Below are positions 1 through 16,916 of a stretch of DNA of 64,000 nucleotides, one piece after another. The number at the start of each line of letters is the position of its first letter. Within the stretch, counting starts at the first letter, position 1. The translations under genes were made by a program, and so were the position numbers. A model generated the notes under the pieces. It saw only the letters and a program-made list of their open reading frames with translations. It ran no database searches and was not told the DNA's origin. Source of the stretch: a virus (lineage: Duplodnaviria > Heunggongvirae > Uroviricota > Caudoviricetes); IMG/VR virus record IMGVR_UViG_3300029537_000168; one strand, 5' to 3'.

Positions 1-215
1 ACGAAACGTATAACTTTAGGTGGGTCCACGCTTGTAAGGTTCATGTGAGCCTTGAATTTCACCCCCCCCCGTACGGCAAGATGATAGAGGACCTGGGAGT
101 CTTTCCCACCAGAAAACGCCAGATAAAATCCGTTTTCTGGGTCCATTCTCAATGCCATCTCTTCACTTTTGCGAAGAAGGTTAATGGAGTATTCTATTTT
201 TTCATCTAGTGTCAT
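1..215 (-). CDS. PAPS-reductase-family (PP-loop) protein, runs off window edge
   Basis: Manual translation MTLDEKIEYSINLLRKSE...FYLAFSGGKDSQVLYHLA...NLTSVDPP; SGGKDS PP-motif. Confidence 0.8.
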   Translation of the reverse strand, partial: MTLDEKIEYSINLLRKSEEMALRMDPENGFYLAFSGGKDSQVLYHLAVRGGVKFKAHMNLTSVDPPKVIRF

Positions 216-232
216 TTCTTTTAAATATTCAG

Positions 233-325
233 TCCCACGCCGGGGAGTCGAACCCCCTGATAAGCGAATTGTCAAACCTTTAAACTTTTGTATGGAAAAT
301 ATGCGCCGTCGCACGTTGCGTGGGA
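233..325 (-). ncRNA. tRNA-like RNA (acceptor stem, T-arm, short hairpin) with a non-tRNA AU-rich insert
   Basis: TCCCACGC/GCGTGGGA stem, GGGGG-TTCGACT-CCCCG T-arm, GTGCG-ACGG-CGCAT hairpin; no anticodon arm. Confidence 0.55.
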
Positions 326-342
326 GCCATTCTATATATAGG

Positions 343-705
343 CTATTTCACTTTCATTACATCACCAAAATTTTCACTGAACGAATCGTCTTCCCCCGGA
401 TTTCCCTGAAACCATATCTGAATCCCCAGGAACTTCGCCACGCGGAACTCTATGCGTGCTCCGCGGCTTTCCTTCCAGTTCGTCTGCAGATAGATATGCC
501 CGCAACGGGAAAGCAGCAGAATGTCCCACACCATGTGCATCCAGTACGGGCGCGATGGTTTCAGTCCGAGAATGATAGGATTCACGGGAGTGAAACCCAT
601 CTCGGCAATCTCCTGATCTGCATTATCAAAGTTCTTGTATGCCTGCAGGTAGGAAAGACCGCCTATTTTACCGGAGTTATAGCATTTTATGTTTTTCTTT
701 GCCAT
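343..705 (-). CDS. DUF4406-like (nucleoside deoxyribosyltransferase-like) protein
   Basis: YNSGKIGG...GFTPVNP...IYLQTNWKESRGARIE pattern. Confidence 0.75.
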   Translation of the reverse strand: MAKKNIKCYNSGKIGGLSYLQAYKNFDNADQEIAEMGFTPVNPIILGLKPSRPYWMHMVWDILLLSRCGHIYLQTNWKESRGARIEFRVAKFLGIQIWFQGNPGEDDSFSENFGDVMKVK

Positions 706-796
706 GTATTTCAGGTTTACAAAGGGCTCCGCACGGATGCGGAACCCTGAATTTACAAATACCTTTTATCACCCAACATGTCATTGTATGACATGG

Positions 797-839
797 CAAA
801 TGTAACAATTTTCAACCGAAATCGCATTAAAATTGTTGC
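797..839 (-). promoter_or_regulatory. -7 promoter element overlapped by palindromic operator (copy A)
   Basis: TACATTTG on minus; GTAACAATTTTCA-N12-TTAAAATTGTTGC. Confidence 0.65.
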
Positions 840-845
840 TAAATT

Positions 846-1022
846 TCATAAAACCTCCGATTTTACATGGATTCTTGCTGATGTAACAGATGCAATACGC
901 TGAATAAGTGATAGATAAATGCCGTCTTTGTCTTTTATGGTAAAAACGACGCTTCGTTCTACTCCTTTTTTGGCATTCCGGATAGATATTTCGGGCTCTT
1001 TTCCTGCTTCAATCCACTCCAT
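846..1022 (-). CDS. small hypothetical protein
   Basis: Manual ORF MEWIEAGKEPEISIRNAK..., fills gap in operon. Confidence 0.35.
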   Translation of the reverse strand: MEWIEAGKEPEISIRNAKKGVERSVVFTIKDKDGIYLSLIQRIASVTSARIHVKSEVL

Positions 1023-1098
1023 GAGTGCGGCCGCTGTGTACGACTGTTCGAAGCATAGAACGTAGGTCCGGTTGGCGAGTGTGAGTATAGAGTAAGGT

Positions 1099-1536
1099 TT
1101 ACCAGTTCAGTAATGAAAAACGTCTGGAATGTTTGGGATGCAGCATTTCCATTTTCCGCAGTCGTTCGTCGTCAATCACCACATTCGGCACATCGCACGA
1201 GTCGCAGGATGGTTTCATCACACGCACAATACCGAGCGCGACGGCCATTACCAGCAGGCGCTCGGCTGAATCGAGCGTGGCCCCTTCGTATCGGCTTCCG
1301 TGACCGCGTGCCAGAATCCATGGAGCGCCTTCCGGACGATTGCTGTAACGCATCACGCGAGGAAGACCCTTCACAGCCGAAAGCACAAACATATATTTTT
1401 CTTCCAGCCGGCTACGGCAAAAGGTATGCGCACCTTCCGTAAGTCCCGGAACGGTTACGGTTTCTCCGCAACGCTCGTTTGTGCGGTAGGTGGCATACTG
1501 GTATATGTGGTTTATTGTGTCGGTGGTGACGTTCAT
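1099..1536 (-). CDS. hypothetical protein
   Basis: 145-aa ORF, overlaps stop of methyltransferase. Confidence 0.6.
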   Translation of the reverse strand: MNVTTDTINHIYQYATYRTNERCGETVTVPGLTEGAHTFCRSRLEEKYMFVLSAVKGLPRVMRYSNRPEGAPWILARGHGSRYEGATLDSAERLLVMAVALGIVRVMKPSCDSCDVPNVVIDDERLRKMEMLHPKHSRRFSLLNW

Positions 1537-2198
1537 GGCTTAAATAAATCTCCTTGTATCAGTTTACCGTTTGCGGTATTAATTTCATTCATGCACTCCT
1601 CACGGAATCTATTTTCTTGCGCATCGAAATAATCTTTGTCTATTTCTGTGGCATAGAAATCAAATCCCATTTTGTAAGCTGCTATTCTGCTACTTCCGCT
1701 TCCAAGGTGAGTGTCCAGAATCTTATCACCTGGCTTAGCAAAAGTACGTAAAAGATAAGCATACAGGTCGATTGGCTTTTGCGTGGGATGAAATTTACCC
1801 TTGTCTGCTTTACCTCCCTTATTTGATATGCTTATATGCTTTGCTGGTTTATTAAACGATGTCCAGGCAAATTCGCATTGAGAGAAGTTTTCCCAAACTT
1901 GTTTTTTGTCCCAACATACAAAACATCTTGTTGGAGGAAGAGGAAAGTAATTACCTCCCCAAATAATCTGATTCTGGCTTACTCGAAACAATTCATCAAA
2001 GTATTCCTTCGTAGGACGGATGTCCCATCGCTGGATATTTCCCCTGTTTAGACACCTGTTTTTAAGTTTACCTCTTCCATGGGTACTTTTTTTGTCTAAT
2101 CCGTATGGAGGGTCCACGATGGCCAGTTCAAAAAACTTGTCGGGTATGGAGCGCATGTATTCCATGCAGTCCATGTTATATGTTTCGCTTATTGGCAT
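1533..2198 (-). CDS. orphan DNA methyltransferase (N6-A/N4-C, beta class)
   Basis: DPPY motif near N-terminus, HPTQKP, ILDTHLGSGS motif I. Confidence 0.9.
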   Translation of the reverse strand: MPISETYNMDCMEYMRSIPDKFFELAIVDPPYGLDKKSTHGRGKLKNRCLNRGNIQRWDIRPTKEYFDELFRVSQNQIIWGGNYFPLPPTRCFVCWDKKQVWENFSQCEFAWTSFNKPAKHISISNKGGKADKGKFHPTQKPIDLYAYLLRTFAKPGDKILDTHLGSGSSRIAAYKMGFDFYATEIDKDYFDAQENRFREECMNEINTANGKLIQGDLFKP

Positions 2199-2202
2199 AT
2201 CA

Positions 2203-2787
2203 CTATCTCACTACAAGATTATTCTTTTCAACCAGATGCACACAGTTTATTTGAGCCAGGCAGTCGGCCAGCGGAGTGTGTCTGTCCGCCACCTTCGGAG
2301 GAAGAAGACCTGCACTATCCAGAGCATCCATATACGGACGCACATCGCGCACTTTCCGGAAGTTCCACGGAAGCACTTCTTCGTCGCATCTGTACACGTT
2401 CAAGTTATACCATGAATACATGGAACGAAGCATAGCCACGTCGAAATCCAGCTGAAGACACCATAACGTGAAGTCGTTCCCTTCGTCCGTAGCAGCTATA
2501 AACTGCATGAAATCCTCCAGGAAATCCTCCAGTGGTGTTTCTGCTCCTTCCACAAATTCGCGTCGTGCTTCGTCCGACTGCATCATCCACCATTTCAGCG
2601 TGGATGCTTCTACCTTAAACCCATAGCGGATGGAGTCTGCAAGGTCAATTTTCCACACCTTTTGTCGTCCGGTTTCACCCGTTTGAGGGTCAAACTCTAC
2701 GGCAGCCACCGAACGGACCACGCTTCCAGGTGTCCTTCCCAGCGTTTCCGTATCTATCATTACATGCTTGAATTTCTTCTCTCCCAT
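2203..2787 (-). CDS. DEDDh 3'-5' exonuclease (DUF5051-like)
   Basis: HVMIDTETLG, STLKWW, FDVAML, RDVR, HTPLAD motifs. Confidence 0.8.
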   Translation of the reverse strand: MGEKKFKHVMIDTETLGRTPGSVVRSVAAVEFDPQTGETGRQKVWKIDLADSIRYGFKVEASTLKWWMMQSDEARREFVEGAETPLEDFLEDFMQFIAATDEGNDFTLWCLQLDFDVAMLRSMYSWYNLNVYRCDEEVLPWNFRKVRDVRPYMDALDSAGLLPPKVADRHTPLADCLAQINCVHLVEKNNLVVR

Positions 2788-2793
2788 AATCTT

Positions 2794-3078
2794 TCATTTA
2801 TGTTGAATCAGTCCGTCTTTACCCACACGGCGTTTCTGGTCTTCCGTAGCTTTTTCTTTCGGAAATCTTCCGTGCCATTTTCCTGGAACATATCTTACGT
2901 GATTTCCTGTTTCGTCAAACTCTATTTTACAGCATTCCGCACAAAGCGGTTTCCATTTGTACGGCAGAAGACTTTCGTCCCATTCTGCATCTGGCGCAAG
3001 TCTTGTCACAATGCTCCAGTATTCCGAAGTGGCGGTGTTGTCCACACACCCGCATTTTGCGCAAATAAAACATCCCAT
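2794..3078 (-). CDS. Cys-rich hypothetical protein
   Basis: CAKCGC and CAEC zinc-binding-like pairs. Confidence 0.6.
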   Translation of the reverse strand: MGCFICAKCGCVDNTATSEYWSIVTRLAPDAEWDESLLPYKWKPLCAECCKIEFDETGNHVRYVPGKWHGRFPKEKATEDQKRRVGKDGLIQHK

Positions 3079-3079
3079 G

Positions 3080-3214
3080 TCAATCCTCCATCATTTGTTT
3101 TATCATCTTCAGTAGTTCTTTAAATGCAGAAACAGTTATTCCTATTGCAAAAAGAATACTCCATCCAAAAGCTACACTTAATATAGCAACCAGAAAAATA
3201 TTAAACGGATTCAT
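3080..3214 (-). CDS. small membrane peptide
   Basis: MNPFNIFLVAILSVAFGWSILFAIG hydrophobic stretch. Confidence 0.45.
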   Translation of the reverse strand: MNPFNIFLVAILSVAFGWSILFAIGITVSAFKELLKMIKQMMED

Positions 3215-3407
3215 TATTTCTTTTGTATATAGGTTTTTCACGAAGCACATCCAGCGCCATGTCGGCCTTTCGCACCATGCCCAGCGTTTCCGACGCATAG
3301 AGGTCGCCGGCAGCCATGCGTGCCAGAAGTATCTCGCGGTATTCCGCACGCGAAACTACTTCACCAATTACCGGAGGCTTGCGGAAAAGATTCACCTGAT
3401 AGCTCAT
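3201..3407 (-). CDS. hypothetical protein
   Basis: 68-aa ORF, overlaps neighbours. Confidence 0.5.
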   Translation of the reverse strand: MSYQVNLFRKPPVIGEVVSRAEYREILLARMAAGDLYASETLGMVRKADMALDVLREKPIYKRNNESV

Positions 3408-3883
3408 ACTTTCTTCCGTTTTGATTCAAACTCCTGCTGGAGGATGGTTTCGTATTCCTCTCCCAGCGGATAGCGGCTGCACAGGTACGCCTTTCCGTTG
3501 TAGATAAACCACTGCGGAGTGTGCTGGCGGTTTATAGGAATGCCAAACGCCACCCGAAAATCGCCGGAGGTCACGTCCGGCAGGTCCATGATTTTACGTG
3601 CTATCTCCTGCCCTTTCTCGTTCTGCATATTCGGGATATATTCTCCCTTACCGATAAACTGGTAGGCAAAAAGGTTGGGAACTCTATGGAACTTCAGGCT
3701 TCCGATTCCTACTCCCGGGAACAGCCGTCCCGGACGGTCCGTCCGCGATTCAGCACCCAGACTGGCAGCCAGTTCGTTGGCCGCTTCCACCGCTCTATTC
3801 CCTTTATCAATCAGTTCCTGAATGCAGCGTCCGCGATGCGTGTTCGATAGCGACACCTTGTAGTAATATCTTTTTTCTTCCAT
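3404..3883 (-). CDS. hypothetical protein
   Basis: 159-aa ORF in operon. Confidence 0.6.
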   Translation of the reverse strand: MEEKRYYYKVSLSNTHRGRCIQELIDKGNRAVEAANELAASLGAESRTDRPGRLFPGVGIGSLKFHRVPNLFAYQFIGKGEYIPNMQNEKGQEIARKIMDLPDVTSGDFRVAFGIPINRQHTPQWFIYNGKAYLCSRYPLGEEYETILQQEFESKRKKV

Positions 3884-3996
3884 GCCGTTTTCAGATAAAT
3901 TGTTTTACAAGACAAATGATTCCATACAGGCAGAATCCTGCTACCAGAACCAGGCCAATCAGGATAAGGCATCCCTGCATGGCCATCTTCTTAAAT

Positions 3997-4362
3997 TCAT
4001 TCATAATCCACTCCTTTCTCCAGCGTCATGCCGGGAATGTAATACATTCCGCAGGTGTTCAGTTTTTCGAGCGCCGTCTGTATGCTCTTCTGTGAATTAT
4101 TCACGTAGTTCACCAGATAAGCTTTCTTCCCATTGTACATAGCAGGAATGAATACCGGCATCACCTGGTTCCACGGCAGCACACCTCGCGGCACATTACG
4201 CATCAGGCAGTCGTCTGTGGGAATTTCCTCGGCATCCTTTGGCAGATGTTCAAGAAAAATGTGTGAGTCGCCTTCCTCGGCGAGCGTAGTAATAAGGGGA
4301 TTTTGCAGTTTAGAAAACAGAGCTTTGTTAAGCTCCCTGCGTCGTTGGTTAGTATAGATCAT
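3997..4362 (-). CDS. hypothetical protein
   Basis: ORF; start moved to MIYTNQ because upstream ATGs overlap the promoter. Confidence 0.55.
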   Translation of the reverse strand: MIYTNQRRRELNKALFSKLQNPLITTLAEEGDSHIFLEHLPKDAEEIPTDDCLMRNVPRGVLPWNQVMPVFIPAMYNGKKAYLVNYVNNSQKSIQTALEKLNTCGMYYIPGMTLEKGVDYE

Positions 4363-4406
4363 TTGCCCTGCTTTAATGGTTAATTCATTGTTTTTCTTTC
4401 GCATGG

Positions 4407-4449
4407 CAAATGTAACAATTTTTAGCAAGAATCGCATTAAAATTGCACG
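4407..4449 (-). promoter_or_regulatory. -7 promoter plus operator (copy B)
   Basis: Near-identical to 797-839. Confidence 0.65.
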
Positions 4450-4562
4450 TAAAATTCAAAAAACCACCGGTTCACGCCTGATCCGGTGCTGATTATCAAT
4501 TAATTGAAGTATGTTGTAAAAACTATTCAAATTATTAAAATCTATTCTGTTTTTTGCATAAG

Positions 4563-5795
4563 TCACGCAACCCTGAAAGGACTGCTGTACCTTATCGGAC
4601 GCAACAACCGCCCGCTACCGGTTATCTGACTGATACAATCAGAATCACCGACTACTTTTCTTAAAATGTTTACTGCTCCATTTACATCGGCATTGATGTA
4701 TCTGCCTGTAGAAGAACGGAACAATCCACGTTTTACTCTCTTTCCGAGATACGACTCATGTTTCCCGATTTCTTCCTTTGCAAGCGCATCACACTTTGAT
4801 GTATAGGATTCTTCATTTTCCACGAACCGTATTCCAGCCATTCTACATTTATATTTCAGATAGGAAGCCAGTCTCGCAAACGGAATCTGCACAAACTTCT
4901 GATTGTTGCGCTTTCCGATGTTTACCGACTGCTTCCAGCCGGTGTTGTAGCCTACAACTAAGTTTCCTATTCTGTTTTCTATAAGATGATTGACTATCAT
5001 GCGGCTGTATTTATGAAATGCGTCCTCAAAGTATCTGTCACGCTTTTCATAAAGATTTTGCATTCGCTTTGTAGCTTTCTTTATTCCCTGCTTGTCCTTT
5101 ATGCTTTGCAGCTTTGCAAGCTGACGGTTAAAGTTCCCGTTGTAAGACTTCAGGAACTTGCCGCTGTAAAGAAAGCTGCCTTTATCCGTTACCATCGTAG
5201 CCAGATTATCGATGCCTAAATCTATTGAAGCGTATTTGGACTTGTCTAAATCTGCATCTTTAACCTCTTGACGGTAAACTATTTCAACTTTCAGTTTCTT
5301 GCCGGAAGGAAGTATCCTTACCTGCTGAAAGTTCTGAATACGTTCCTTGTACTTATCCCATTGAGGAATAGGGATAATAAGGTTTTTGGCAAGACGGATC
5401 ATTCCGTCCTTAATTCTTGCCGACTGATTAGAATAATACAGGTTAAACAGGCTGCCGCGCTTTCTGAAAGAAGGAAGCTGCGGCATTGCCTTGTATTTTG
5501 CAGGATGTGCCTTGAAGTCCTTTATTGCCTTGCAGTATGCTTTCACATTTCTGTCCAGAACCTTCAGGATTTGCTGCGAAACCTGAGCTTTCAGAAGTTT
5601 ATAGTTTATCTCTCCCTCAAGATTAGGCCTAGCTTTCATCAGCTTATCCATGTCGGCATACCACAGCCATTTATTCTCATTCTTGAGAGAATGACGGAAC
5701 AGGTATAAAGCCTGATTGTACAGGTTGTTTGAAACCTTGCACAAGTTTACAAGATGTTCTGTTTGCGGTATGTAAAAGCTATAAATCAAGTTCAT
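4563..5795 (-). CDS. tnpB: TnpB RNA-guided endonuclease (IS200/IS605 OrfB family), no TnpA
   Basis: ASIDLGIDNLAT (RuvC-I), EESYTSKC, INADVNGAVNI (RuvC-III), N-terminal NNLYNQALY. Confidence 0.92.
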   Translation of the reverse strand: MNLIYSFYIPQTEHLVNLCKVSNNLYNQALYLFRHSLKNENKWLWYADMDKLMKARPNLEGEINYKLLKAQVSQQILKVLDRNVKAYCKAIKDFKAHPAKYKAMPQLPSFRKRGSLFNLYYSNQSARIKDGMIRLAKNLIIPIPQWDKYKERIQNFQQVRILPSGKKLKVEIVYRQEVKDADLDKSKYASIDLGIDNLATMVTDKGSFLYSGKFLKSYNGNFNRQLAKLQSIKDKQGIKKATKRMQNLYEKRDRYFEDAFHKYSRMIVNHLIENRIGNLVVGYNTGWKQSVNIGKRNNQKFVQIPFARLASYLKYKCRMAGIRFVENEESYTSKCDALAKEEIGKHESYLGKRVKRGLFRSSTGRYINADVNGAVNILRKVVGDSDCISQITGSGRLLRPIRYSSPFRVA

Positions 5796-5932
5796 TTTTC
5801 AATTCTTCTTTTATTTCATTTTCTTTTACCGTCTTATTACAAGAAACTTTTATACTTAAAATATTAAAATCAGAATAAAATCAGATTTAAAAGAAAATAT
5901 TATCCCACATCTAGAATAATATTCAATTAAAA

Positions 5933-6820
5933 TCAGGTTCGTGTAATTGAATCAATTACTTTTCTGTTTGCTTTATTAAGCAAATCTGTGCTTATGCTTG
6001 ATAAATATATACGTGTAGTTTCCACATTGTCGTGCCCTAATGCCTGACTGATTATCGGAATGTCAATTCTGTTATCTCTGGCTATGCTTGCCCAACTATG
6101 CCTGGCTACATACATAGTAACAGGTACAGAAAGATTCAATTTTTTGCTTATCTGTTTTAAGTAAACATTTGTTCGTTGCATAGTGCTTTTGGGGGTAGAC
6201 TGTATGGCTTTACTTAGCAGCTCATCTCTGTTTTCCCTTGCATATTTTTTCAAAATCTCACGAGCCTTTGGGTGTACTCCGACAATCAGCAATTGTTCGG
6301 TTTTTCTTCGTTTATATTCTATGGTATTACCTTTCAGATTCTCCTTTTTCAATCCAATCAAATCAACAGGAGCCATACCTCTCAGATAAAAAGAAAGCAT
6401 AAATAAATCCTTTGCTTTTTCTTCTTTATCCGATTGGGGTTCATACTGATAGAATTTACGGAAATCAGACAAGTTTAAAGCTCTATGTACCGTTTTTTCA
6501 TTTCCGGTAAAAACACGCCTAAATGGTTTCTTATCTTTAACCATATCTGCATTTACGGCACGATTGTATATAGCCCTGAATATTCTACAATAAAAAGACT
6601 GGGTGTTCTTCGTGCTACCGTTATTATATCGGATATAATCAGAAAAACGTTCTGCCATATCCGCATTTATATCACATATTCTTACATCTTTACCGTTTGA
6701 AAACTCTTTAAATTTCTTTTTAAAAGACAGATAATTCTGATATAATCTTTCTCTGTTCTGTTTTTTGAAAGAATTTAATATTTCATCCGTGTATTTTATA
6801 AGTGTTATATTGTAGTTCAT
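5933..6820 (-). CDS. tyrosine recombinase/integrase (SAM-like plus catalytic domain, no arm-binding domain)
   Basis: YLRGMAPVDL, KRRKT, YVARHSWA, LGHDNVETTRIY. Confidence 0.9.
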   Translation of the reverse strand: MNYNITLIKYTDEILNSFKKQNRERLYQNYLSFKKKFKEFSNGKDVRICDINADMAERFSDYIRYNNGSTKNTQSFYCRIFRAIYNRAVNADMVKDKKPFRRVFTGNEKTVHRALNLSDFRKFYQYEPQSDKEEKAKDLFMLSFYLRGMAPVDLIGLKKENLKGNTIEYKRRKTEQLLIVGVHPKAREILKKYARENRDELLSKAIQSTPKSTMQRTNVYLKQISKKLNLSVPVTMYVARHSWASIARDNRIDIPIISQALGHDNVETTRIYLSSISTDLLNKANRKVIDSITRT

Positions 6821-7271
6821 TATTTGTTTTATTTTTAGTTAATTTATTATCTTTTTTCCCGTTTACATAACGAATTATTGATCCGTCAATCACGTACCAG
6901 TTTTCCAGGCTGGTTCCAAGTTGTGAAAACTGGGGATAAAGTTCGGGAGCTTTGGTGTATAGCCTTCTGGCATGCTGGCGGCAGAACTCGTCCGTTACGA
7001 AAGGAGGACGGACATCATCAGCCTGACGGCTGATTTGGTCGGCTGCTTCAATATCTCCCCGTTGAAATTCCATCAGACAGTCCCTATATAGCTGGAGCCA
7101 TTCTTTATACGGACGATACATCTGGGTGGCAGGATGGTTGAGCCATCCGCGGCCTTTTCCGTTGATAGCGCGGAGAATCTGTTCAGCTTCTATAATCTGT
7201 TTGTTAAGCCGCCGTTTGTCAAGCTGCCTGGCGGTTTGCAGGCAGCTTGGCGATGGTAGGAATATTTGCAT
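6783..7271 (-). CDS. pyrimidine-dimer DNA glycosylase / endonuclease V-like protein
   Basis: MQIFLP...LDKRRLNKQIIEAEQIL...GWLNHPATQMY. Confidence 0.75.
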   Translation of the reverse strand: MQIFLPSPSCLQTARQLDKRRLNKQIIEAEQILRAINGKGRGWLNHPATQMYRPYKEWLQLYRDCLMEFQRGDIEAADQISRQADDVRPPFVTDEFCRQHARRLYTKAPELYPQFSQLGTSLENWYVIDGSIIRYVNGKKDNKLTKNKTNNELQYNTYKIHG

Positions 7272-7283
7272 GATCACTGTTTT

Positions 7284-7703
7284 TTATCTTCTGTTCTCCT
7301 CTTCAATATTGGCAATCATTTCCTCGTAAACTTGCGGAGTTGTTGCCGGGCCCTCGGTGTCGGTCGTACCGATTTGACGTATCACCACCTCACAACCCAG
7401 GAAGTGAGCCATGCGCAGGAAGTTCACTATGTGCGTGTCTTTTCCACGAGAGATGTCGCGGATAGCTTCGTAGGAAACGCCCGTATCTTTGTCGGCCGTC
7501 ATGAAGTGAACTCCGCAAATCTCCGCACGGGTGAACAGGAATTTACCTATTTCCTTGGCCGAATTAATTGCACTGTCCGGATAACGCGGAGGATTTTTCG
7601 GCAGATTCAGTGCACGATGAATGTTGTAGCGGCGGTATCTTACCACCAGATAGCCTGCAAAAAGCAGGACGCAGATAACTGAGAAAATTGTTGTTCCGTC
7701 CAT
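7284..7703 (-). CDS. membrane-anchored protein with possible HTH
   Basis: N-terminal TM helix; ADKDTGVSYEAIRDISRG HTH-like segment. Confidence 0.55.
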   Translation of the reverse strand: MDGTTIFSVICVLLFAGYLVVRYRRYNIHRALNLPKNPPRYPDSAINSAKEIGKFLFTRAEICGVHFMTADKDTGVSYEAIRDISRGKDTHIVNFLRMAHFLGCEVVIRQIGTTDTEGPATTPQVYEEMIANIEEENRR

Positions 7704-7707
7704 AATT

Positions 7708-7935
7708 TTACTCTATTTCGTTTAAACTTTCAATTGATTCTTCAATGCTTGAGAGAGCTTCTTCCATGTATTCTATGTACTCTTGTATCCGTTCTCCTTT
7801 TTCTGATTCCTGGAAAGACTCAGGGAGGTTATCAAAGGCTTCCTGTTCTTCGTCTTTGAGTTCTTCAAGTTCCTCATATACTTTTCTTAACGACTCTCTT
7901 ACGTCTTCGATTTCTTTTCTTCTTTTCTTATTCAT
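7708..7935 (-). CDS. acidic coiled-coil hypothetical protein
   Basis: MNKKRRKEI...DEEQEAFDNLPESFQESEKGE, common phage pattern. Confidence 0.65.
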   Translation of the reverse strand: MNKKRRKEIEDVRESLRKVYEELEELKDEEQEAFDNLPESFQESEKGERIQEYIEYMEEALSSIEESIESLNEIE

Positions 7936-8055
7936 ACGTTTATAATTTAAAAATGAAGAAGGCCGGCGGAGTATTACTCTCCGTCGGCCTTTGCTCTAAC
8001 TTAAAACTTCGCTTCGCAGCGGTAGGAAATTATGATAAATATTTTTGGATATAAA

Positions 8056-8721
8056 TTAACCATCACCAACGCCACAGTCATAAATTTCAGTAATCTTGCG
8101 CCCTTCATGCGATAAACCCGAAGATAGCAGTTTTTCTTTAACGTATCTACGAAAGCCTTCATTCGACTGTACGCCTGAATACCTCGATGCCATACCGTAA
8201 AAGCGTTTAGGAATAGATATTTTATATCCTAATATTTCCTTCTTTATATAGTCATAATCAAAATGAAAAAACCTTTCATTATCTTTTTCAGTAAAGTAAG
8301 AAAAATCAATTTCTATATTATTTTCCACGCAGAATTTATAAGTTTTTTCGCATTCCTGTTTATATCTTTCATAAGCCAATGCTCTTTGCTTATCCTTGCG
8401 CTCTTGTTCTGCTTTCCATAATTCCTCTCTTTCTCTTTTACACTTCAGCACATACTTTAACACAGTTCCTTTAAGTGATACAAACTCACCATTCATTCCA
8501 CCGCGAGGGGCGTCGTTCCCTATTTCATGGCTTATGCCATGCTCTGTAAGAAGTTTATCCAGTTCTTCGGTATAACTCTTTTTATAATAGTAACCTCCAC
8601 TATACCGGCTCCGTACAGTATATGCTTTCCCATTGCGTAATAAATCATCTACATATTGATTCATTACTACACTTTTCTTCTTGTCTGAAAGCTCTCTTAG
8701 TTTTTCTATTTGTGTTTTCAT
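8056..8721 (-). CDS. hypothetical early protein
   Basis: 221-aa ORF with GNDAPRGG motif. Confidence 0.65.
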   Translation of the reverse strand: MKTQIEKLRELSDKKKSVVMNQYVDDLLRNGKAYTVRSRYSGGYYYKKSYTEELDKLLTEHGISHEIGNDAPRGGMNGEFVSLKGTVLKYVLKCKREREELWKAEQERKDKQRALAYERYKQECEKTYKFCVENNIEIDFSYFTEKDNERFFHFDYDYIKKEILGYKISIPKRFYGMASRYSGVQSNEGFRRYVKEKLLSSGLSHEGRKITEIYDCGVGDG

Positions 8722-8990
8722 TGATTTTACTTTTAAAATAATAATTCAGTTATAAAACAGATATAGGAATTATGATGATTTTTTTTGATATAAGATATAA
8801 ATACTATTTTTGTGCCGTCAAGGGATCGTCCCTTGTGGATTAAAACGAAAATCTACCATCGGTAGGTTTTCAGTTGTGAATTGCTTCACACTTTTAGTAT
8901 CTTAGCGCGGCGTACTCCGTCGCGCTTTTTATTTATTTCTATAAACCAGACTACATCATCATACTTCCTCCTTCGTTTCGAGTGTGCATC

Positions 8991-10055
8991 CTAACCAATC
9001 TTTGTCCTGATTTCTTCTATTATCCGACTGCACTCCTCTTTGGATATTTTCCCTGAATACGTTTCATCTACTTCCTTTTCAAATTCTTCCATGTTTCCAC
9101 GAAAATCTTCACAAGTAATTTCCACTTCATTTTTTTTAGTCCGGTAGGCATGTATGTGGCTAATGAATAGGCCTGAAAGATTGAACCCACAATGGCCCTC
9201 ATTGTCCTTTATCTCGGCATTGCCACGTATCCATGTAGGGCAGTGTACTAATTCGTTGTCATTTATCTCAGCATCATATACGTGGGCATTCTCGCATATT
9301 ATAGTCTCGCCACATACAGAGGAACAGCCATACACCTGTGCATTGCCATATATATCAACATTACCATATATATGAGCATTGCCATATACGTGGGCGTTCT
9401 CATATATACTGACATATCCATATACCCAGGCTTCACCATATATGTTGGCATCGCCATACACTTCAGTATTACAATGTATGTTAGCTCTATCGTAAACTTT
9501 AGCATACCCGTATATTTGAGCTTCTTCATGCACCTCGGCATAGCCATACACCTGAGCATTACCATATATTTGTGCTCCGTCATACACCTCGGCATAGCCA
9601 TACACCTGAGCATTACCATATATTTGTGCTCCGTCATACACATCGGCATTGTCATACACTTGAGCATTACCATATATGTATGCTCCGTCATACACATCGG
9701 CATTGTCATACACTTGAGCATTACCATATATGTATGCTCCGCCATACACATTGGCACAGCCATACACCCGGACGTTCCCATGCAACTTTGCATCACCATA
9801 TACCTCTGCGTCATCATATACCTTTGCGTTATCATATACCTGGGCATTGCCGTACACCTGAGCATCACCGAACACCAGAGCATTGTCATACACCCAGGCA
9901 TCACCTTCATGGCTAAGATTGCTTTCTTTTTCAACATAACCTCCAAAGTCGCCTTCTTTGGCGTACTTAAATGATTTTATGCATTTGATTTGAAACAATT
10001 TTTTCCCACTTGCGAGTTTTATGAATTTGTCAGTCAAAATAAATTTCTTTTCCAT
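8991..10055 (-). CDS. hexapeptide-repeat (left-handed beta-helix) protein
   Basis: Many (V/I)YG(N/D)A(Q/E) repeats; GGYVEKESNLS N-domain; start MEKKFIL. Confidence 0.85.
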   Translation of the reverse strand: MEKKFILTDKFIKLASGKKLFQIKCIKSFKYAKEGDFGGYVEKESNLSHEGDAWVYDNALVFGDAQVYGNAQVYDNAKVYDDAEVYGDAKLHGNVRVYGCANVYGGAYIYGNAQVYDNADVYDGAYIYGNAQVYDNADVYDGAQIYGNAQVYGYAEVYDGAQIYGNAQVYGYAEVHEEAQIYGYAKVYDRANIHCNTEVYGDANIYGEAWVYGYVSIYENAHVYGNAHIYGNVDIYGNAQVYGCSSVCGETIICENAHVYDAEINDNELVHCPTWIRGNAEIKDNEGHCGFNLSGLFISHIHAYRTKKNEVEITCEDFRGNMEEFEKEVDETYSGKISKEECSRIIEEIRTKIG

Positions 10056-10159
10056 ATTCCATACAGTTTTTACCGTGTGTCTCACAATTTAGATTAGAAA
10101 ATGTAGTCCGACTGGGTATTACTCCCAGCCGGACTTAAAACAGCCTTTTTAGTCAGGAA

Positions 10160-10471
10160 TTATTCACTAACTAAATTCTGGTAGAAGAAATAATCAAGCA
10201 CTATTACCAGCACTTTTGCTTCTTTGTCGTCGTACCAGTCATCGAAGTCGGCTTTAATTCCGGAATTTGCAAGAATAGTTTCATCATATTCTTCTTCGTC
10301 CATTTCGCTGAAGTCGCATTTTATTTCATCAGGAAGATTGTCAAGATCTATATCCAGCCCTTCTATACTGTCAGTGTGGATTCTATGATTTTTTCCTCTA
10401 TAGACATAAATTTCTACATCTGCACAATTAGACGCTAATTCTTTCAGGTAATTTTTTTCGTAAGTTATCAT
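10160..10471 (-). CDS. acidic hypothetical early protein
   Basis: 103 aa, D/E-rich, leader present. Confidence 0.65.
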   Translation of the reverse strand: MITYEKNYLKELASNCADVEIYVYRGKNHRIHTDSIEGLDIDLDNLPDEIKCDFSEMDEEEYDETILANSGIKADFDDWYDDKEAKVLVIVLDYFFYQNLVSE

Positions 10472-10600
10472 AATTCAACTATTTAATTGGTTAATATTCT
10501 ATTTCATATACTAAAAGTGACCGAAGGTTCATTACTTTACCTTCGGTCTTTTAACTAACTTAAAATTCCGCTTCACAGCGGCAGGAAATTATGATTATTA

Positions 10601-10840
10601 TCATTTCAGAAAACATAATCCGCAACGGTATTCTTTCTTATCTTCCGGAACTTCATATTCTAGCAGGTATTCCGCAAAGAAATCTTTCGCTTCCTCTTCA
10701 GTTCCGTTTACATCTTCACAAGCGCTGTCGTCTAAAATTATTTTCCCATCACATACAAGACGGTAGTATCCGCTTATGGACTGTTCGCATTCAAAATTCT
10801 TTCCTGTTGCTTTTACTACATCCTCAAAACTAGCTTTCAT
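10601..10840 (-). CDS. hypothetical early protein
   Basis: 79 aa, leader present. Confidence 0.6.
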   Translation of the reverse strand: MKASFEDVVKATGKNFECEQSISGYYRLVCDGKIILDDSACEDVNGTEEEAKDFFAEYLLEYEVPEDKKEYRCGLCFLK

Positions 10841-11102
10841 AACTCTAAACAGTTTTTCCCGTGTGCCTCACGATTTGATTAAACATTCGTAGTCCGAAAG
10901 AGTATCACCTCCGCCGGACTTGTTCTAACTTAAAACTAACTTGTGGAATTATTTTGTTAACGGTTTATATGTATTTCTCATAATTCTAAAAGTTTGACGT
11001 TGTAAATATAGTTATTTTTCTCAAGTAGCCGAATGAAAATCACTTTTCATTCGGCTGATTTACTAACTTAAAAACTAACGCTTCACAGCGTGACCGATGG
11101 AA

Positions 11103-11309
11103 TTATATTTCCAAATTATCTAATGCTTCTTTTTCTTCTTTTGACAGAAGACAAACGAAGTCATCGTTACTATAATAACCTTGATCTTCGTCCGGTTCGT
11201 CAAAACATCTTTTAGATGAATACATAACACTGCGTAAAGCATTATACTCGTCTTTTGTAAGACCTAATATGCTTATTGTTCCGTTTTTATTGAATCTTGT
11301 TCTGCTCAT
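11103..11309 (-). CDS. hypothetical early protein
   Basis: MSRTRFNK start defined by conserved leader. Confidence 0.6.
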   Translation of the reverse strand: MSRTRFNKNGTISILGLTKDEYNALRSVMYSSKRCFDEPDEDQGYYSNDDFVCLLSKEEKEALDNLEI

Positions 11310-11376
11310 AATTCTTTTTATTTTATAGTTACACATCGGTTCCGGATCAAGATGCAAACCTGAATCCGGAAGTAGG

Positions 11377-11838
11377 TTAGATGCGCATCATTTCAAGACA
11401 TTGTTTCATAGGTATAAGTTCGTCACCAAAGCATTGTTGCAGGAAATTGTAAGACAGCTTAAAATTTCCTTTTACGCTTCTTATTTTAAATATCTTACCT
11501 TCACATAATGACCTGAGATTTTCATCGTCATTAAGCATCCAGAATAGTTTTTCTAAGGAGTATTTTGGAAGCATCCCAGATATTTGCAATTTACCTACAG
11601 GGTGAACTTCTTTAGGAACATCCATTACTGTTACTTCGGCAGCAAAAATAGGAAAATCAATTATACAATCTTGTAAATCGTTTAGATTGTTATCGTCACC
11701 TTCATATAGGAAAGCATATTTTCTGAATCTGCTCCATATCCCGGGTTTAAGAATACTTTTGGATATTTCTACTGGTTCACCTTTCATGAATGTTTCACCA
11801 TTAGCTACTTTCTCGATTAAATTCTTTTCTACTTTCAT
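11377..11838 (-). CDS. hypothetical early protein
   Basis: 153 aa, conserved leader. Confidence 0.65.
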   Translation of the reverse strand: MKVEKNLIEKVANGETFMKGEPVEISKSILKPGIWSRFRKYAFLYEGDDNNLNDLQDCIIDFPIFAAEVTVMDVPKEVHPVGKLQISGMLPKYSLEKLFWMLNDDENLRSLCEGKIFKIRSVKGNFKLSYNFLQQCFGDELIPMKQCLEMMRI

Positions 11839-11902
11839 AATTCCAAAATTTTAGTTAGACAATGGTTCTCGTACCAATCTTTTAAATCGGTACGAAATTT
11901 TC

Positions 11903-12202
11903 TTAGCGAGCTTTTTCTATTTCCTGGTTGTAATTGTTTTGCAGAAAATACATATCCTCATTATAAAGTACATTCAGATAATTCAGTATTTTCTCCTTAC
12001 TTCTTACTTTCTTTATCTTTGATATGCTACCCATTCCATTGCTGTCAGTTCTTACATCTCCATTTTTAAATATTAAAAGAATACATCCTGTACATCCTTC
12101 CCAATCTGTTATGATTTCTCCTACTTGGAATTTACCATATTCTTTTACTTCGCTTTTATTGGCATAGTGACGAAAATAATGTTTCTCAATATTTATTACC
12201 AT
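11903..12202 (-). CDS. hypothetical early protein
   Basis: 99 aa, conserved leader. Confidence 0.65.
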   Translation of the reverse strand: MVINIEKHYFRHYANKSEVKEYGKFQVGEIITDWEGCTGCILLIFKNGDVRTDSNGMGSISKIKKVRSKEKILNYLNVLYNEDMYFLQNNYNQEIEKAR

Positions 12203-12273
12203 AATTCCTTGTTTTTAAGTTAGACGATAGTACCGGGCTAAGATCGCAGACTTAGACCGGTTAGTAGCTAATT

Positions 12274-12534
12274 TCATTTACGAGGTCTTATTTTTCTGAA
12301 CTTACCTTCATAATCAGCATTTACATGTCCTGATTGAGAAAGGGTTATATTCCTACTTCTTCGATACATTTTATATTCTCCCCACCAATATGCGTTATAT
12401 TTTTTACGCATATACTTGAGCAGATTTATAACTTCGTCAGGTTTTTCTCGTGAGTATTCAAACCATTCTGAAATGCCACCTTTCCCATCATTATCAAATA
12501 CAACTACTAATAGACCTGATTTTTGATTTCCCAT
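12274..12534 (-). CDS. hypothetical early protein
   Basis: 86 aa, conserved leader. Confidence 0.65.
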   Translation of the reverse strand: MGNQKSGLLVVVFDNDGKGGISEWFEYSREKPDEVINLLKYMRKKYNAYWWGEYKMYRRSRNITLSQSGHVNADYEGKFRKIRPRK

Positions 12535-12596
12535 AATTCTTTATTTTAAGTTAGACTATGTATCCGGAGGGAGTATCACTCTCCATCCGGATTTTC

Positions 12597-12788
12597 TTAG
12601 CTGGGAAAATCATCTTCCGTGAAATTAATTCCTGAATATGCCTCTTGTATTACTTTGTCAGAAATAATACTATCTGCTCTGGCAAGTTCATCATAAGAAG
12701 TGCCTTCTCCCGTTTCTTCATTTTGTTGTATCAGATAACTCTGCTTGAGTTCTATCAACTGCTCTCTGTTTAATTCTGATATATACAT
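12597..12788 (-). CDS. hypothetical early protein
   Basis: 63 aa, ELNREQLIELKQSY. Confidence 0.6.
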   Translation of the reverse strand: MYISELNREQLIELKQSYLIQQNEETGEGTSYDELARADSIISDKVIQEAYSGINFTEDDFPS

Positions 12789-12800
12789 GACTATAGGTTT

Positions 12801-13061
12801 TTATTTTTCAAAAAGAAATAATTCATTATTACCAGGTATATATACCTTACCGTTTTCTAAGCATAAGAATAAATCTGACTGACTATTTCCTGATGCTTTA
12901 TAAAACTCGTCGTAATTATATTTTTCTCCTTTGCTCCAGGAATATGTGCTTATACCTAAATCTCTATCAGAACTTATTCTTCTGCATGCTTCCTCGAAAC
13001 ACATGTTTTTCTTTCCTATTGGACAGAAAGTATAACCATTGTATTCAAAATCTTTTTCCAT
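12801..13061 (-). CDS. hypothetical early protein
   Basis: 86 aa, conserved leader. Confidence 0.65.
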   Translation of the reverse strand: MEKDFEYNGYTFCPIGKKNMCFEEACRRISSDRDLGISTYSWSKGEKYNYDEFYKASGNSQSDLFLCLENGKVYIPGNNELFLFEK

Positions 13062-13127
13062 AATTCAAATTTTTAAAAGTTAGACAATAAGTAAGGCAGT
13101 CGGAATCACTTCCGGCTGCCCTCTACA

Positions 13128-14252
13128 TTACAGAGAGAAAGCTGCTCTCAGTTCCGGCTCGCGTTTCTTTGAGAAAACCCAACCAGCACCGCATTTCAAC
13201 TTACCGTTGAATCGTCCGCCAAGCTCTTTGAGCTTCGCTACATAGTCACGGGTGTTACCGATGATGGCCACGGCCTTTTCGCTGTAATCTACAAGCTGCA
13301 AATCAGATTTATTTTCTACGGCTTTTGCTGTAGAACTTACAGGTTTTTCCTCCGGTTTCTGATAAAAATCTATATCACTCAGATAACCCCGTAAACAACT
13401 TGAAGCAGAAGTGTACTGGTTAGATTCCACAAACTCTGAATAAGACTTTGGGAGAAACTGATTTGTTTCAGTTATTCCGATAGCCTCGGGATGTTTGGCA
13501 TAGAATTTTTCTTTTGTTTCATTCCAGATTTTATCAGAATAGCTGCGTTCCAAATCCGGCATATAACCGATTCCACCATATAAGGAAGTAAACTCGCTTT
13601 TGATGTGTTCTTCAATGTCCTCGTATCCGTTAAATGTCGTATCTACAAACTTAGAACAGATTTTAGCAACCATCTTTTCGGTCGGACCGTCCGTCCATCT
13701 TACGTTGTAGCTGTTTGAACCATTCTTTTTGGAATAGAACTTTATACCCGGAAAAGCACGCTTCAGAAGCACAAGCATGTTTTGTTTGGCCGTCTTGTCG
13801 TCATAGCTATTACACTCAGTCAGTATCGAGCCATACTCTTTTCGGAGCTGATCGGTACGATTTTGGCTGGCTATACGTTTGTTTTTCTCCAGACGTTCAT
13901 TCCATGCCTGCTGTACTTCGCACTGGTGAACCAGTTTGGCTATTTCCTGCTCGGGCATACGGTAGTCGGGCTCTTTGTCGTCCCAATAGTAACCAATACC
14001 GAACTTCTTTGATAACGGCTGGTCGTCCTGGCCTACTCTCCAATATGCGAAACGGTGCCATCCTCCAATTTCGGCCATTTGCTGCCGTCCGTGAATGTCA
14101 GGAGCAGAAGTCACGATAAACTTACCGCTTTCGCTTCCTCCATAACCTAAGAATCCATAAACGCGCTGGCCTACTTCGAGAACTTTTTTACCGATTTCTA
14201 CCATCTGAAAACCATTTGACCAATCCATTCTGTACATTTTTCCTGATTCCAT
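13128..14252 (-). CDS. LPD29 (large polyvalent protein domain)-containing protein
   Basis: LKRAFPGIKFYSK...VRWTDGPT; C-terminal DYSEKAVAIIG..LKELGGRFN..GWVF domain. Confidence 0.75.
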   Translation of the reverse strand: MESGKMYRMDWSNGFQMVEIGKKVLEVGQRVYGFLGYGGSESGKFIVTSAPDIHGRQQMAEIGGWHRFAYWRVGQDDQPLSKKFGIGYYWDDKEPDYRMPEQEIAKLVHQCEVQQAWNERLEKNKRIASQNRTDQLRKEYGSILTECNSYDDKTAKQNMLVLLKRAFPGIKFYSKKNGSNSYNVRWTDGPTEKMVAKICSKFVDTTFNGYEDIEEHIKSEFTSLYGGIGYMPDLERSYSDKIWNETKEKFYAKHPEAIGITETNQFLPKSYSEFVESNQYTSASSCLRGYLSDIDFYQKPEEKPVSSTAKAVENKSDLQLVDYSEKAVAIIGNTRDYVAKLKELGGRFNGKLKCGAGWVFSKKREPELRAAFSL

Positions 14253-14314
14253 AATTCTATAAATTTTAAGTTAGACAATGACCCCGGCAGATTCTTAAAA
14301 ACCTGCCGGAATGT

Positions 14315-14857
14315 TTAAGCTACACAGAAGTAGAAATCACCCTGATGGCGGTATCCGCTGGTAAGCAATGTCCTGGAGTATGCTTCGTAGTCGAAATACT
14401 GACCGAACTCTGTTTGAAGTTCTTCAGGCCATTTCATTTCCGCCATATAGGTGGCAAACGCTTCCTCAGAATCAAATTGCCCTGCGTATTTATCTCTGAA
14501 CTTTTCTACGAGCTCTTCACCGTCTTTGATATAGGAATAATCCACAAAGTACATATCAAGAAACGTAAAAAATGCTTCTGTCTCTGTGTCATCCATATCT
14601 TTTGCACACTGAATGATACCAAATATTAGCGGGTCGATATAGCTTTCGTTTATCATACCGTCTGGTATGTTATTATAGTCCTGGTACATAAACTCTGGCT
14701 CTTCCTCGTCGCTATGCAATTCCTTGCAGGCTTCCATAAACTTATCTTTCGATTCATAGTCGGCCAATTCCATCCATGCGCCAGCCAGCGAACCTTCATT
14801 ATATTTCTTATATGTACCTACATATACACTTGCTCTGAGTAATTTTGATTTTTCCAT
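14315..14857 (-). CDS. ardA: antirestriction protein ArdA
   Basis: VYVGTYKKYNEGSLAGAWMEL, EFMYQDY, YFDYEAYSR; highly acidic. Confidence 0.9.
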   Translation of the reverse strand: MEKSKLLRASVYVGTYKKYNEGSLAGAWMELADYESKDKFMEACKELHSDEEEPEFMYQDYNNIPDGMINESYIDPLIFGIIQCAKDMDDTETEAFFTFLDMYFVDYSYIKDGEELVEKFRDKYAGQFDSEEAFATYMAEMKWPEELQTEFGQYFDYEAYSRTLLTSGYRHQGDFYFCVA

Positions 14858-14920
14858 AATTCCTTTGTTTTATAGTTAGACATGGCAGCCGATACAGTTA
14901 CAACGCTGTACCGGCTAATA

Positions 14921-15289
14921 CTATGAAGCTTTGTAGCCATCCTCTGTCTCAATTATCACACCCTGACTGATTGCATAGCTTACAGCCTGCGATGTAACAA
15001 TACCGAAAACGTCACAATCTTTTTTGATGTCATCCATGTACATGTCATTCCAATCTACCTGAACGTCATCATCTTTCACCCATACGTCAATCCATTCGCC
15101 CCACCAACCGTCAGGAAGCTGTACATACACCGCACAACTTCCCGGACCGTCTATCTCGATCTTTGTGGCTACGGCTTCATTCTTGCATATTCTTCTTACT
15201 ATTTTCTTATGATCGGGACGATGATTCATTTGTGAATACATAACTTTTGTAATTCTTTCCCAATCCTGGGTTGTCAATGATTTTGTCAT
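14921..15289 (-). CDS. hypothetical early protein
   Basis: 122 aa, conserved leader. Confidence 0.65.
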   Translation of the reverse strand: MTKSLTTQDWERITKVMYSQMNHRPDHKKIVRRICKNEAVATKIEIDGPGSCAVYVQLPDGWWGEWIDVWVKDDDVQVDWNDMYMDDIKKDCDVFGIVTSQAVSYAISQGVIIETEDGYKAS

Positions 15290-15353
15290 AATTCCTATAG
15301 TTTTAAGTTAGTAATCGTGTCTGGAAGTACCGTAAAGTACCTCCAGCATGGAA

Positions 15354-15569
15354 TTAATACCCCATAGCGTCGTAGTACGATTTGTTTTTTACGTACTCTT
15401 TTGCTATTTCGTAGTCACTGCAATCTTCGCCGAGCTTTGCGCTAATACTTTCGTATGCGCTTTTTGGCATTACATAGATAACCTGTTCGCTCCAGTCGGA
15501 ACGACCAGCGAAACACAAAGCCACGAATAAAAACACGCAGCACAGAATGACTTTCATTTTCTTTTTCAT
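15354..15569 (-). CDS. small exported/membrane protein
   Basis: MKKKMKVILCCVFLFVALCFAG signal-like N-terminus. Confidence 0.6.
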   Translation of the reverse strand: MKKKMKVILCCVFLFVALCFAGRSDWSEQVIYVMPKSAYESISAKLGEDCSDYEIAKEYVKNKSYYDAMGY

Positions 15570-15630
15570 AACTCAAACTATTTAAGAAGTTTGCAGGCCG
15601 TACACTGGCAAAGGTGAACGGCCTGATAGG

Positions 15631-15837
15631 TCATAGTCTGATAGCATTCTGGCAAGCAAAATCTGTAGATAGAATATGTAAAACTTGCATATCTGATATT
15701 TCTTTATATCGCGCATTCCGATTTGAATAGTCCATACAAACTGCTTTTGCGTGATTTAGAATGTTTGTTACGCATAGATTAATATTTTTACCATTCCATG
15801 TGTTACATGTTACCAGATAAAATTTATTTTTTACCAT
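15631..15837 (-). CDS. hypothetical early protein flanked by direct repeats
   Basis: 68 aa, conserved leader. Confidence 0.55.
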   Translation of the reverse strand: MVKNKFYLVTCNTWNGKNINLCVTNILNHAKAVCMDYSNRNARYKEISDMQVLHILSTDFACQNAIRL

Positions 15838-15900
15838 AATTCAAAATAATTTTAAGTTGTGATTGCAGGCCGTACACCGGTAAAGGTGAACGGCCTGATT

Positions 15901-16206: not shown

Positions 16207-16224
16207 AATTCAAAAAGTTTATAG

Positions 16225-16910: not shown

Positions 16911-16916
16911 TAAATA

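Follow-up and report, generated by a model that had tools for sequence, protein, structure and literature searches.

In phages P1 and P7, the antisense RNA C4 keeps translation of an early function, the antirepressor, from starting. Its precursor is a substrate of RNase P (Hartmann et al. 1995, as cited in PMC4919922). The t-elements of plant mitochondria and the mascRNA and menRNA are described in PMC4919922 and PMC1920247 as embedded tRNA-like structures that do not decode and are cut by RNase P and RNase Z. In engineered tRNA scaffolds, a cargo is placed in the anticodon region and the cell processes and stabilises the resulting RNA (PMC3753655 and PMC3401473). With regard to the control of early phage genes, the PeSL cassettes of T4-type phages consist of a repeated stem-loop and a regulatory motif before small early genes, at boundaries of module shuffling (PMC2839356 and PMC4122927).

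Here, we analyzed a 64,000-nt stretch of DNA (hereafter called the window) from a virus of the class Caudoviricetes (IMG/VR record IMGVR_UViG_3300029537_000168), which contains a tRNA-like element with an AU-rich insert in place of the anticodon arm. By analogy, this element would work most like the processing signals of the t-element and mascRNA kind and like the C4 antisense RNA. Like C4, it would be a phage-encoded antisense RNA with a precursor processed by RNase P, but C4 lacks a cloverleaf-type scaffold, a T arm and a D hairpin, and it has one target in its own operon whereas the element faces a repeated family of leaders. The t-elements and mascRNA come from eukaryotes or organelles and are not reported to carry an antisense cargo, whereas the variable insert of the element is complementary to start regions of its own genome. 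Similar to the tRNA-like domain of tmRNA, the element has an acceptor stem and a T arm and another RNA in place of the anticodon arm. Like canonical phage tRNAs and pseudo-tRNAs, it has a 7-bp acceptor stem with A73, a TTCGA T loop and GG in the D loop, but it has no anticodon arm and is detected neither by ARAGORN nor by the Rfam tRNA model RF00005. Compared with engineered scaffolds, it is natural rather than artificial and retains no anticodon stem, and its stability is only presumed. The preliminary description of this locus was aware of no described system of this form. Our literature search for tRNA-like antisense RNAs in phages or Bacteroides, within the parts of the sources available, found no similar element, and that claim stands apart from the partial precedent offered by the C4 RNA.

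Architecture and genomic setting of the element

The element occupies positions 233-325 on the minus strand (93 nt). It has the acceptor stem of a tRNA, a canonical T arm and, in the D position, a 5-bp hairpin whose loop is NNGG, and it lacks an anticodon arm. The 5' strand of the acceptor stem (TCCCACGC) lies at 318-325, with positions 2-8 forming the conserved 7-bp stem, and the 3' strand together with A73 (GCGTGGGA) lies at 233-240. An 8-bp acceptor-like stem had been proposed initially; both strands were found where expected, but the eighth, outermost U-A pair is not conserved. The first U pairs with A73 in the window element and not in the divergent homolog L214, where the outermost pair is A.A, and therefore the stem is best described as the canonical 7 bp plus an invariant A73. 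Pairs 2, 5 and 6 of this stem are changed on both sides among homologs. The small hairpin in the D position was also present (301-314), although its register had to be corrected with RNAalifold to a 5-bp stem and a 4-nt loop (ACGG) ending in GG. The loop ends with GG in every homolog (ACGG, UCGG, UUGG and UGG were found), and the stem reads GUGCG/CGCAU in the window, GUACG/UGUAC in the homolog L213 and another sequence in L214. The T arm noticed at the outset was located at 242-256, with four invariant G-C pairs and the loop UUCGACU; this loop is UUCGAAU in both L213 and L214, giving the family form UUCGA[CA]U. In tRNAs, the GG of the D loop and residues of the T loop together form the elbow. 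Positions 257 and 241, which correspond to the 49:65 position, are never paired in any homolog.

The anticodon and variable arms are replaced by an AU-rich insert of 44 nt (257-300), which is predicted to be unpaired: it contains no conserved pairs and is open in the centroid fold. The middle sequence quoted in the preliminary description was located at 268-299. Two blocks can be distinguished in this region, namely an anti-start block UUUUCCAUA at 291-299 (complement TATGGAAAA), which is the most conserved block of the insert in the three close types of the element (V1-V3, see below), and a block at 268-284 that is complementary to the leader core ATTGTC-AAC-TTTAAA. When folded as a single sequence, the window element adopts the scaffold with an open middle (z -1.14; z -0.27 to -0.47 with flanks). 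These z values are uninformative, and thermodynamic stability was thus set aside as a line of evidence.

All genes within positions 1-17456 are on the minus strand, and the element forms a tRNA-like fold between same-strand cistrons, as t-elements do. A spacing of 17 nt separates it from the stop codon of the preceding DUF4406/nucleoside-deoxyribosyltransferase-like gene (343-705), and another 17 nt from the start codon (ATG, 215-213) of the PAPS-reductase-like gene that follows. A conserved A-rich trailer (216-232) leads up to this start codon and is common to loci with different downstream genes (PAPS-reductase-like or SSB). On the other side, a conserved 5' flank (326-345; TAGCC...GGCT) extends from the DUF4406 stop codon to the element; it is missing in two loci (L057 and L058) and is therefore probably not essential. 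Genes near the element include those for a DNA methyltransferase, an exonuclease, a TnpB-like protein, a tyrosine recombinase and ArdA (14315-14857), and more distant ones encode a terminase, a protease and a 1993-aa tape measure protein. A sigma-70-type -10-like hexamer is located just upstream of the element, and the D hairpin followed by a U-run is terminator-like. These matches were given no weight as signs of a promoter of its own for the element, as they are to the consensus of a promoter type which this host probably does not use. The host phylum is probably Bacteroidota, as deduced from distant terminase relatives, mostly in Bacteroidota phages, and from one close DUF4406 protein labelled Phocaeicola plebeius by its source.

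Several other features of the region were observed. The TnpB-like gene (4563-5795, minus strand) encodes 410 aa with OrfB_IS605 and Cas12f1-like TNB domains, and is adjoined by the gene for a 295-aa tyrosine recombinase (5933-6820, minus strand) inside the DNA-metabolism region of the phage. Another minus-strand gene (8991-10085) encodes a 364-aa protein that largely consists of tandem VYGNAQVYDNA-type repeats and has strong PHROG matches of unknown function. The contigs of four RNA-library runs correspond to pieces of relatives only and show neither RNA ends nor strand. In these contigs, a stretch of ~70 nt (~792-864) had several-fold higher summed depth; the contigs covering it continue into unlike sequence at both ends, which suggests a short sequence that also occurs in other genomes or contexts. 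Finally, an open frame of 153 codons (292-750, plus strand) starts from the ATG in the complement of the insert and runs antisense through the DUF4406 gene. As neither its frame nor its length is conserved in other variants, it was judged spurious, and a plus-strand protein from the ATG at 292, whose frame and sequence are not conserved, was rejected.

We also examined whether existing RNA models recognise the element. ARAGORN reported no tRNA or tmRNA across the 64-kb window and did not call L213 or L214 a tRNA; at an 80% threshold, the variants were given mutually inconsistent anticodon arms and introns. No Rfam family reached its gathering score in the window and no relevant one matched at E≤10, including the C4 family of Rfam. 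Within positions 1-1200, no tRNA match was obtained at E≤10, and the only Rfam signal in a permissive scan was a 15-nt T-arm fragment of tmRNA with 12.8 bits versus a gathering score of 47. Among four related genomes, of which two are complete, RF00005 had no match at E≤10, although it detected the controls, and the element is the sole tRNA-like sequence in the four genomes searched. The element has in common with tRNAs the 7-bp acceptor stem and discriminator base (three pairs with changes on both sides, A73 invariant) and the TPsiC-type T arm, and it lacks an anticodon arm with a 5-bp stem and a 7-nt loop, the middle being without conserved pairs. An ordinary, intron-containing or mitochondrial-type tRNA was thus rejected, with several modes of ARAGORN giving either nothing or inconsistent results and Rfam giving nothing. 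The same applies to tmRNA, for which the tmRNA mode of ARAGORN was also negative; no G3.U70 pair, tag reading frame or pseudoknots were seen in the sequence of the element.

Conservation and covariation across a family of gut phages

Every one of the 43 IMG/VR loci with a gene for a close DUF4406 relative contains the element, even though the flanking genes vary. A covariance model built from elements only (R1) detected one full copy per genome in the window and in five of five further records, among which G001 is the closest to the window. These phages form a family with genomes of ~110 kb from the human gut. Four flank combinations were observed: the DUF4406 gene either adjoins the element or is separated from it by ~1 kb of extra DNA, and either a PAPS-reductase-like or an SSB gene follows. 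In the loci of the family, the next ATG lies 16-20 nt beyond the element, and the conservation extends past its ends by ~27 nt on the upstream side and ~20 nt on the downstream side. Therefore, the element behaves as a constant module at a junction of gene exchange. When viral contigs were scanned with a pattern of the scaffold, 40 of the 44 matches were family members and the other four were unrelated ordinary tRNAs; a pattern scan of metagenomes gave 33 matches, including 23 family members, of which the named ones came from human gut. A megablast search of positions 1-3000 of the window against INPHARED produced no match.

The close sequences (19 distinct) fall into three types, V1 (that of the window), V2 and V3. 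Paired bases occupy 99.4% of the cells in these variants and only one pair is changed on both sides, and covariation on these sequences alone is not significant (159 and 163 of 500 shuffles as high) because their diversity is too low. More distant loci were fetched via an alignment of DUF4406 proteins, and 37 new loci were searched with R1. Two divergent homologs were obtained, L213 (record G007, 47.9 bits) and L214 (record G008, 37.1 bits), while R1 found no element in 35 loci with a DUF4406 protein 38-49% identical. Each of the two homologs folds on its own into the same scaffold (z -2.2 for L213 and -3.0 for L214), and their inserts are unrecognisably different. Among the resulting 21 distinct sequences, 98.9% of 357 cells are paired and five pairs are changed on both sides (seven cells), namely acceptor pairs 2, 5 and 6 and two pairs of the D stem; none of 500 shuffles reached these values, in an alignment that was fitted to the model and is thus biased towards structure. 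Accordingly, the expectation of a conserved scaffold with a variable insert, for which a covariance model from homologs had been suggested, was borne out, and covariation, the lack of which would have spoken against the preliminary description, was obtained in both the acceptor and the D stem. Nor are the homologs simply decayed tRNAs, as had been considered: none has an anticodon arm, and the acceptor stem, D hairpin and T arm are kept in all of them.

Read on the minus strand, the alignment contains 23 G.U cells (A.C mismatches if the plus strand is read) versus four unpaired cells. This indicates a structured RNA on the minus strand, the same strand as the surrounding genes. Third positions of the neighbouring gene differ by 12% between V1 and V2 and by 42% between V2 and V3, whereas the element differs at 29 of 97 positions between V1 and V2 and at 15 of 97 between V2 and V3; this mosaic history rules out simple arguments from rates. 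A mini tRNA-like sequence was also observed on the contig of an actinobacterial MAG (L127, ~201-245, minus strand), in which the acceptor stem and T arm have the sequence of the V2 element. It has a 9-nt joint and neither a D nor an anticodon region, is preceded by two copies of the palindrome GTTCCACGTGGAAC, and is not called by ARAGORN.

Repeated early-gene leaders and their complementarity to the insert

The predicted pairing partners of the insert are repeated leader units which precede at least 13 small genes in the region 10973-17492 (minus strand). In each unit, a GC-rich hairpin, itself variable, is followed by ATTGTCTAACTTAAAA, some five variable bases (N5) and GGAATTATG, the last including GGAATT and the ATG. 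Such units precede 17, 17, 12 and 16 genes in G001, G002, G007 and G008, respectively, and the leader consensus is identical across all five phages compared. In different phages, different genes sit behind the same unit. Examples in the window are the unit of the 12801-13061 gene (13051-13099, minus strand) and that of ardA (14848-14896, minus strand), and minus-strand copies of TATGGAAAA are found at 10048, 13054, 14850 (the ardA start) and 46902. The layout is like that of the PeSL cassettes, whereas the motif sequence and the host clade differ. The unit may be a promoter, a translation signal or a site bound by a protein. These hairpin-plus-motif leader units are an undescribed regulatory cassette for this phage group. 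If the unit is a promoter, the mRNA would hold only GGAAUUAUG..., and only the anti-start block of the insert could pair with it. Intact units in the opposite orientation were also observed at 7960-8035, 10900-10955 and 11040-11110 (all plus strand), two of which have an extra small hairpin (CGCTTCNCAGCG) before GGAATTAT. The plus-strand unit at 10916-10952 is opposed by one on the minus strand (11007-10973) with nothing but a mini-ORF of 10 codons behind it, and this arrangement may reflect transcription in the early region that is convergent or antisense.

From TTGTC through the start codon (ATGGAAAA), the complementarity between the insert and the leader unit is collinear. We compared its duplex energies with those of 200 dinucleotide shuffles, counting the controls that scored as well as the real insert. 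For V1 (window), these were 0 for the best energy and 0 for the mean energy; for V2 (G001), 2 and 0; for V3 (G002), 1 and 12; and for V4 (the type of G007), 3 and 6. The insert of the fifth type, V5 (G008), is not complementary (125 and 22). Natural same-strand sequences, counted in the same way, were used as further controls for V1, V4 and V5. For V1, 0 of 583 AT-matched 44-mers (best) and 8 of 583 (mean) scored as well, and these rivals include genuine inverted units, which serve as positive controls; without composition matching, the V1 insert is in the top 1.2% of natural 44-mers by best energy and in the top 7% by mean energy. Compared with natural AT-rich windows, the corresponding counts were 6 and 3 of 773 for V4 and 365 and 119 of 928 for V5. 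Reversed and reverse-complemented inserts pair far worse with the leaders. Thus, pairing better than that of shuffled AU-rich controls, on which the preliminary description had staked its reading, was obtained for four of the five variant types, and for V1 and V4 also against AT-matched natural windows. The V4 insert has no detectable similarity to those of V1-V3 (56, 259 and 214 of 500 shuffles as high) and is nevertheless anti-leader as well, so this property has been maintained or re-acquired and not merely inherited. In addition, the invariant insert positions in V1-V3 coincide with the positions that pair with leaders (Fisher p 0.002, 0.037 and 0.002, for positions that are not independent and only three lineages).

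In profile searches, the next-best matches of R1 are reverse-complemented leaders in the window, G001, G002 and G003 (E 0.2-0.7). At the level of DNA profiles, the similarity is weak and not significant: the complement of the insert matches a profile of the leaders with 8.8 bits (E 0.14) and a sharper one with 2-4 bits (E 12-50), and the element was unmatched by the leader DNA profile at E≤1 in G007 and G008. The insert has no counterpart to TCTAAC and GGAATT, the two most invariant blocks of the leader. Mismatches between insert and leaders include 29 that are G.U-compatible and 29 of the A.C type, and with these equal numbers a likeness at the RNA level and one at the DNA level are indistinguishable. 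Point polymorphisms of V2 fall in the anti-leader blocks.

As for individual partners, the preliminary description had pointed to the leader of the 12801-13061 gene. The resemblance is real, and since this gene is on the minus strand, a minus-strand RNA could pair with its mRNA in trans; however, its leader is one of at least 13 repeated units and not a single-gene target. The gene is absent from three other V1 phages (G004, G005 and G006) and present in the V2 phage G003, so that element and target are not specifically paired. Likewise, element and target showed neither co-variation nor co-occurrence, the leader consensus being constant and the 12801-13061 gene patchy. The best predicted partner varies from phage to phage; only the ardA leader, which has the conserved ATGGAAAA start, ranks second in each of the three phages tested. 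When the whole minus strand was scanned, the most stable duplex was formed with a non-leader sequence at 29101-29160 (-30.0 versus -27.0 kcal/mol). In extended folds, the insert pairs nowhere with the downstream start region, and pairing in cis with that start was therefore rejected.

Possible functions of the element

We tentatively favour a tRNA-scaffolded anti-leader RNA that is likely matured by RNase P and RNase Z. We infer that the element is transcribed, excised and stable and that it affects early genes, along the following lines. It would be transcribed within the minus-strand polycistronic transcript of its neighbours, and host RNase P and RNase Z would cut at the ends of the acceptor stem and free a tRNA-shaped small RNA. 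This step is suggested by the conservation of the acceptor stem, T arm and elbow, and by known non-tRNA substrates (PMC4919922). The freed RNA would display the ~45-nt unpaired anti-leader insert, which is predicted to bind the start regions of early genes, those with a ATGGAAAA start, for example ardA, being the best partners. Translation starts in Bacteroidota depend on open AU-rich leaders, and such pairing might dampen the translation of early genes. It is also possible, with somewhat less confidence than for the scaffolded RNA as such, that a tRNA-shaped carrier with a swappable antisense cassette shuts off a class of early genes, including the anti-restriction gene ardA, once the middle genes are transcribed.

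A less probable explanation, which still has to be taken seriously, is that the element is only a tRNA-derived signal for processing or punctuation, similar to t-elements, with the insert as a functionless recombination relic of an inverted leader unit. It keeps the excision step and drops the action in trans, and is thus compatible with the anti-leader reading rather than exclusive of it. Cutting by RNase P and RNase Z at the module junction would leave the downstream mRNA with a short, defined leader rich in A, in agreement with the position of the element, which is 16-20 nt ahead of the next ATG and between genes that are exchanged on both sides. The parts recognised by RNase P and RNase Z are the most conserved ones and the anticodon region is free to vary, the G008 type even having an insert without complementarity to leaders and V2 being polymorphic in the anti-leader blocks; precedents are provided by t-elements and mascRNA (PMC4919922 and PMC1920247). 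Intact inverted units elsewhere in the window imply that inverted copies arise by DNA rearrangement, from which a relic could derive. A functionless relic, on the other hand, should drift away from the leader, whereas the conserved positions of the insert are those that pair with it, and the inserts of V1-V3 and V4 are mutually dissimilar and both significantly anti-leader. The same inverted units bear on a distinctly unlikely reading, in which the plus strand is functional and carries a degenerate, reverse-facing leader or promoter unit behind the T-arm hairpin read in reverse; this unit would either start antisense transcription of the DUF4406 gene or bind the factor that recognises leader units. 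The order of hairpin, TTGTC..AAC..TTTAAA and ATG mimics the architecture of a unit, genuine plus-strand units exist at the three sites given above, and G.U-compatible mismatches are not in excess. However, the invariant blocks TCTAAC and GGAATTAT, present in genuine plus-strand units, are missing from the insert, and the ORF that begins at its ATG shows no conservation of frame, length or sequence (with two 1-nt indels in V3). Moreover, a transcript starting in the insert would hold only one strand of the acceptor stem, leaving the covariation and the 23 G.U cells unexplained.

The conserved elbow features (GG in the D loop and the T loop) and the constant proximity of the next start codon would also suit a tRNA mimic with another role, such as a decoy or ligand for a tRNA-binding protein of the host or the phage or a control in cis of the gene 20 nt downstream, its likeness to leaders being incidental. 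We regard this as unlikely, given that enzymes directed to the anticodon would have no anticodon loop to use, that the insert does not pair with the downstream start in extended folds, and that the downstream gene is interchangeable. Very unlikely is an inert remnant of a decayed tRNA gene, or an attachment site containing part of a host tRNA gene, despite the tRNA ancestry of an element that is undetectable as a tRNA and the presence of a tyrosine recombinase gene in the window. Substitutions preserve the structure, with covariation, and the element is present in every one of the 43 loci. Furthermore, an exact 24-nt pattern (T arm plus 3' acceptor strand, with which a shorter core would be missed) was searched in 185,579 species genomes and gave no tRNA or prophage copy in Bacteroidota, its one hit being the actinobacterial mini tRNA-like sequence. 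The recombinase gene is 5.6 kb away, and record G004 is assigned by IMG/VR to the class with direct terminal repeats. Of the traits expected of an attP site, none was found, be it a match to the 3' end of a host tRNA, a neighbouring integrase or prophage copies.

Should the RNA be produced and work as predicted, the element would represent the natural equivalent of an engineered tRNA scaffold, and the programme of the phage would be timed by one small RNA against a leader shared by many early genes. Action in trans, if shown, would make it a new regulatory principle, while as a processing signal only it would represent a case from a bacterial virus of tRNA-like punctuation of mRNA. The element is a testable handle on gene regulation in these uncultured ~110-kb gut phages.
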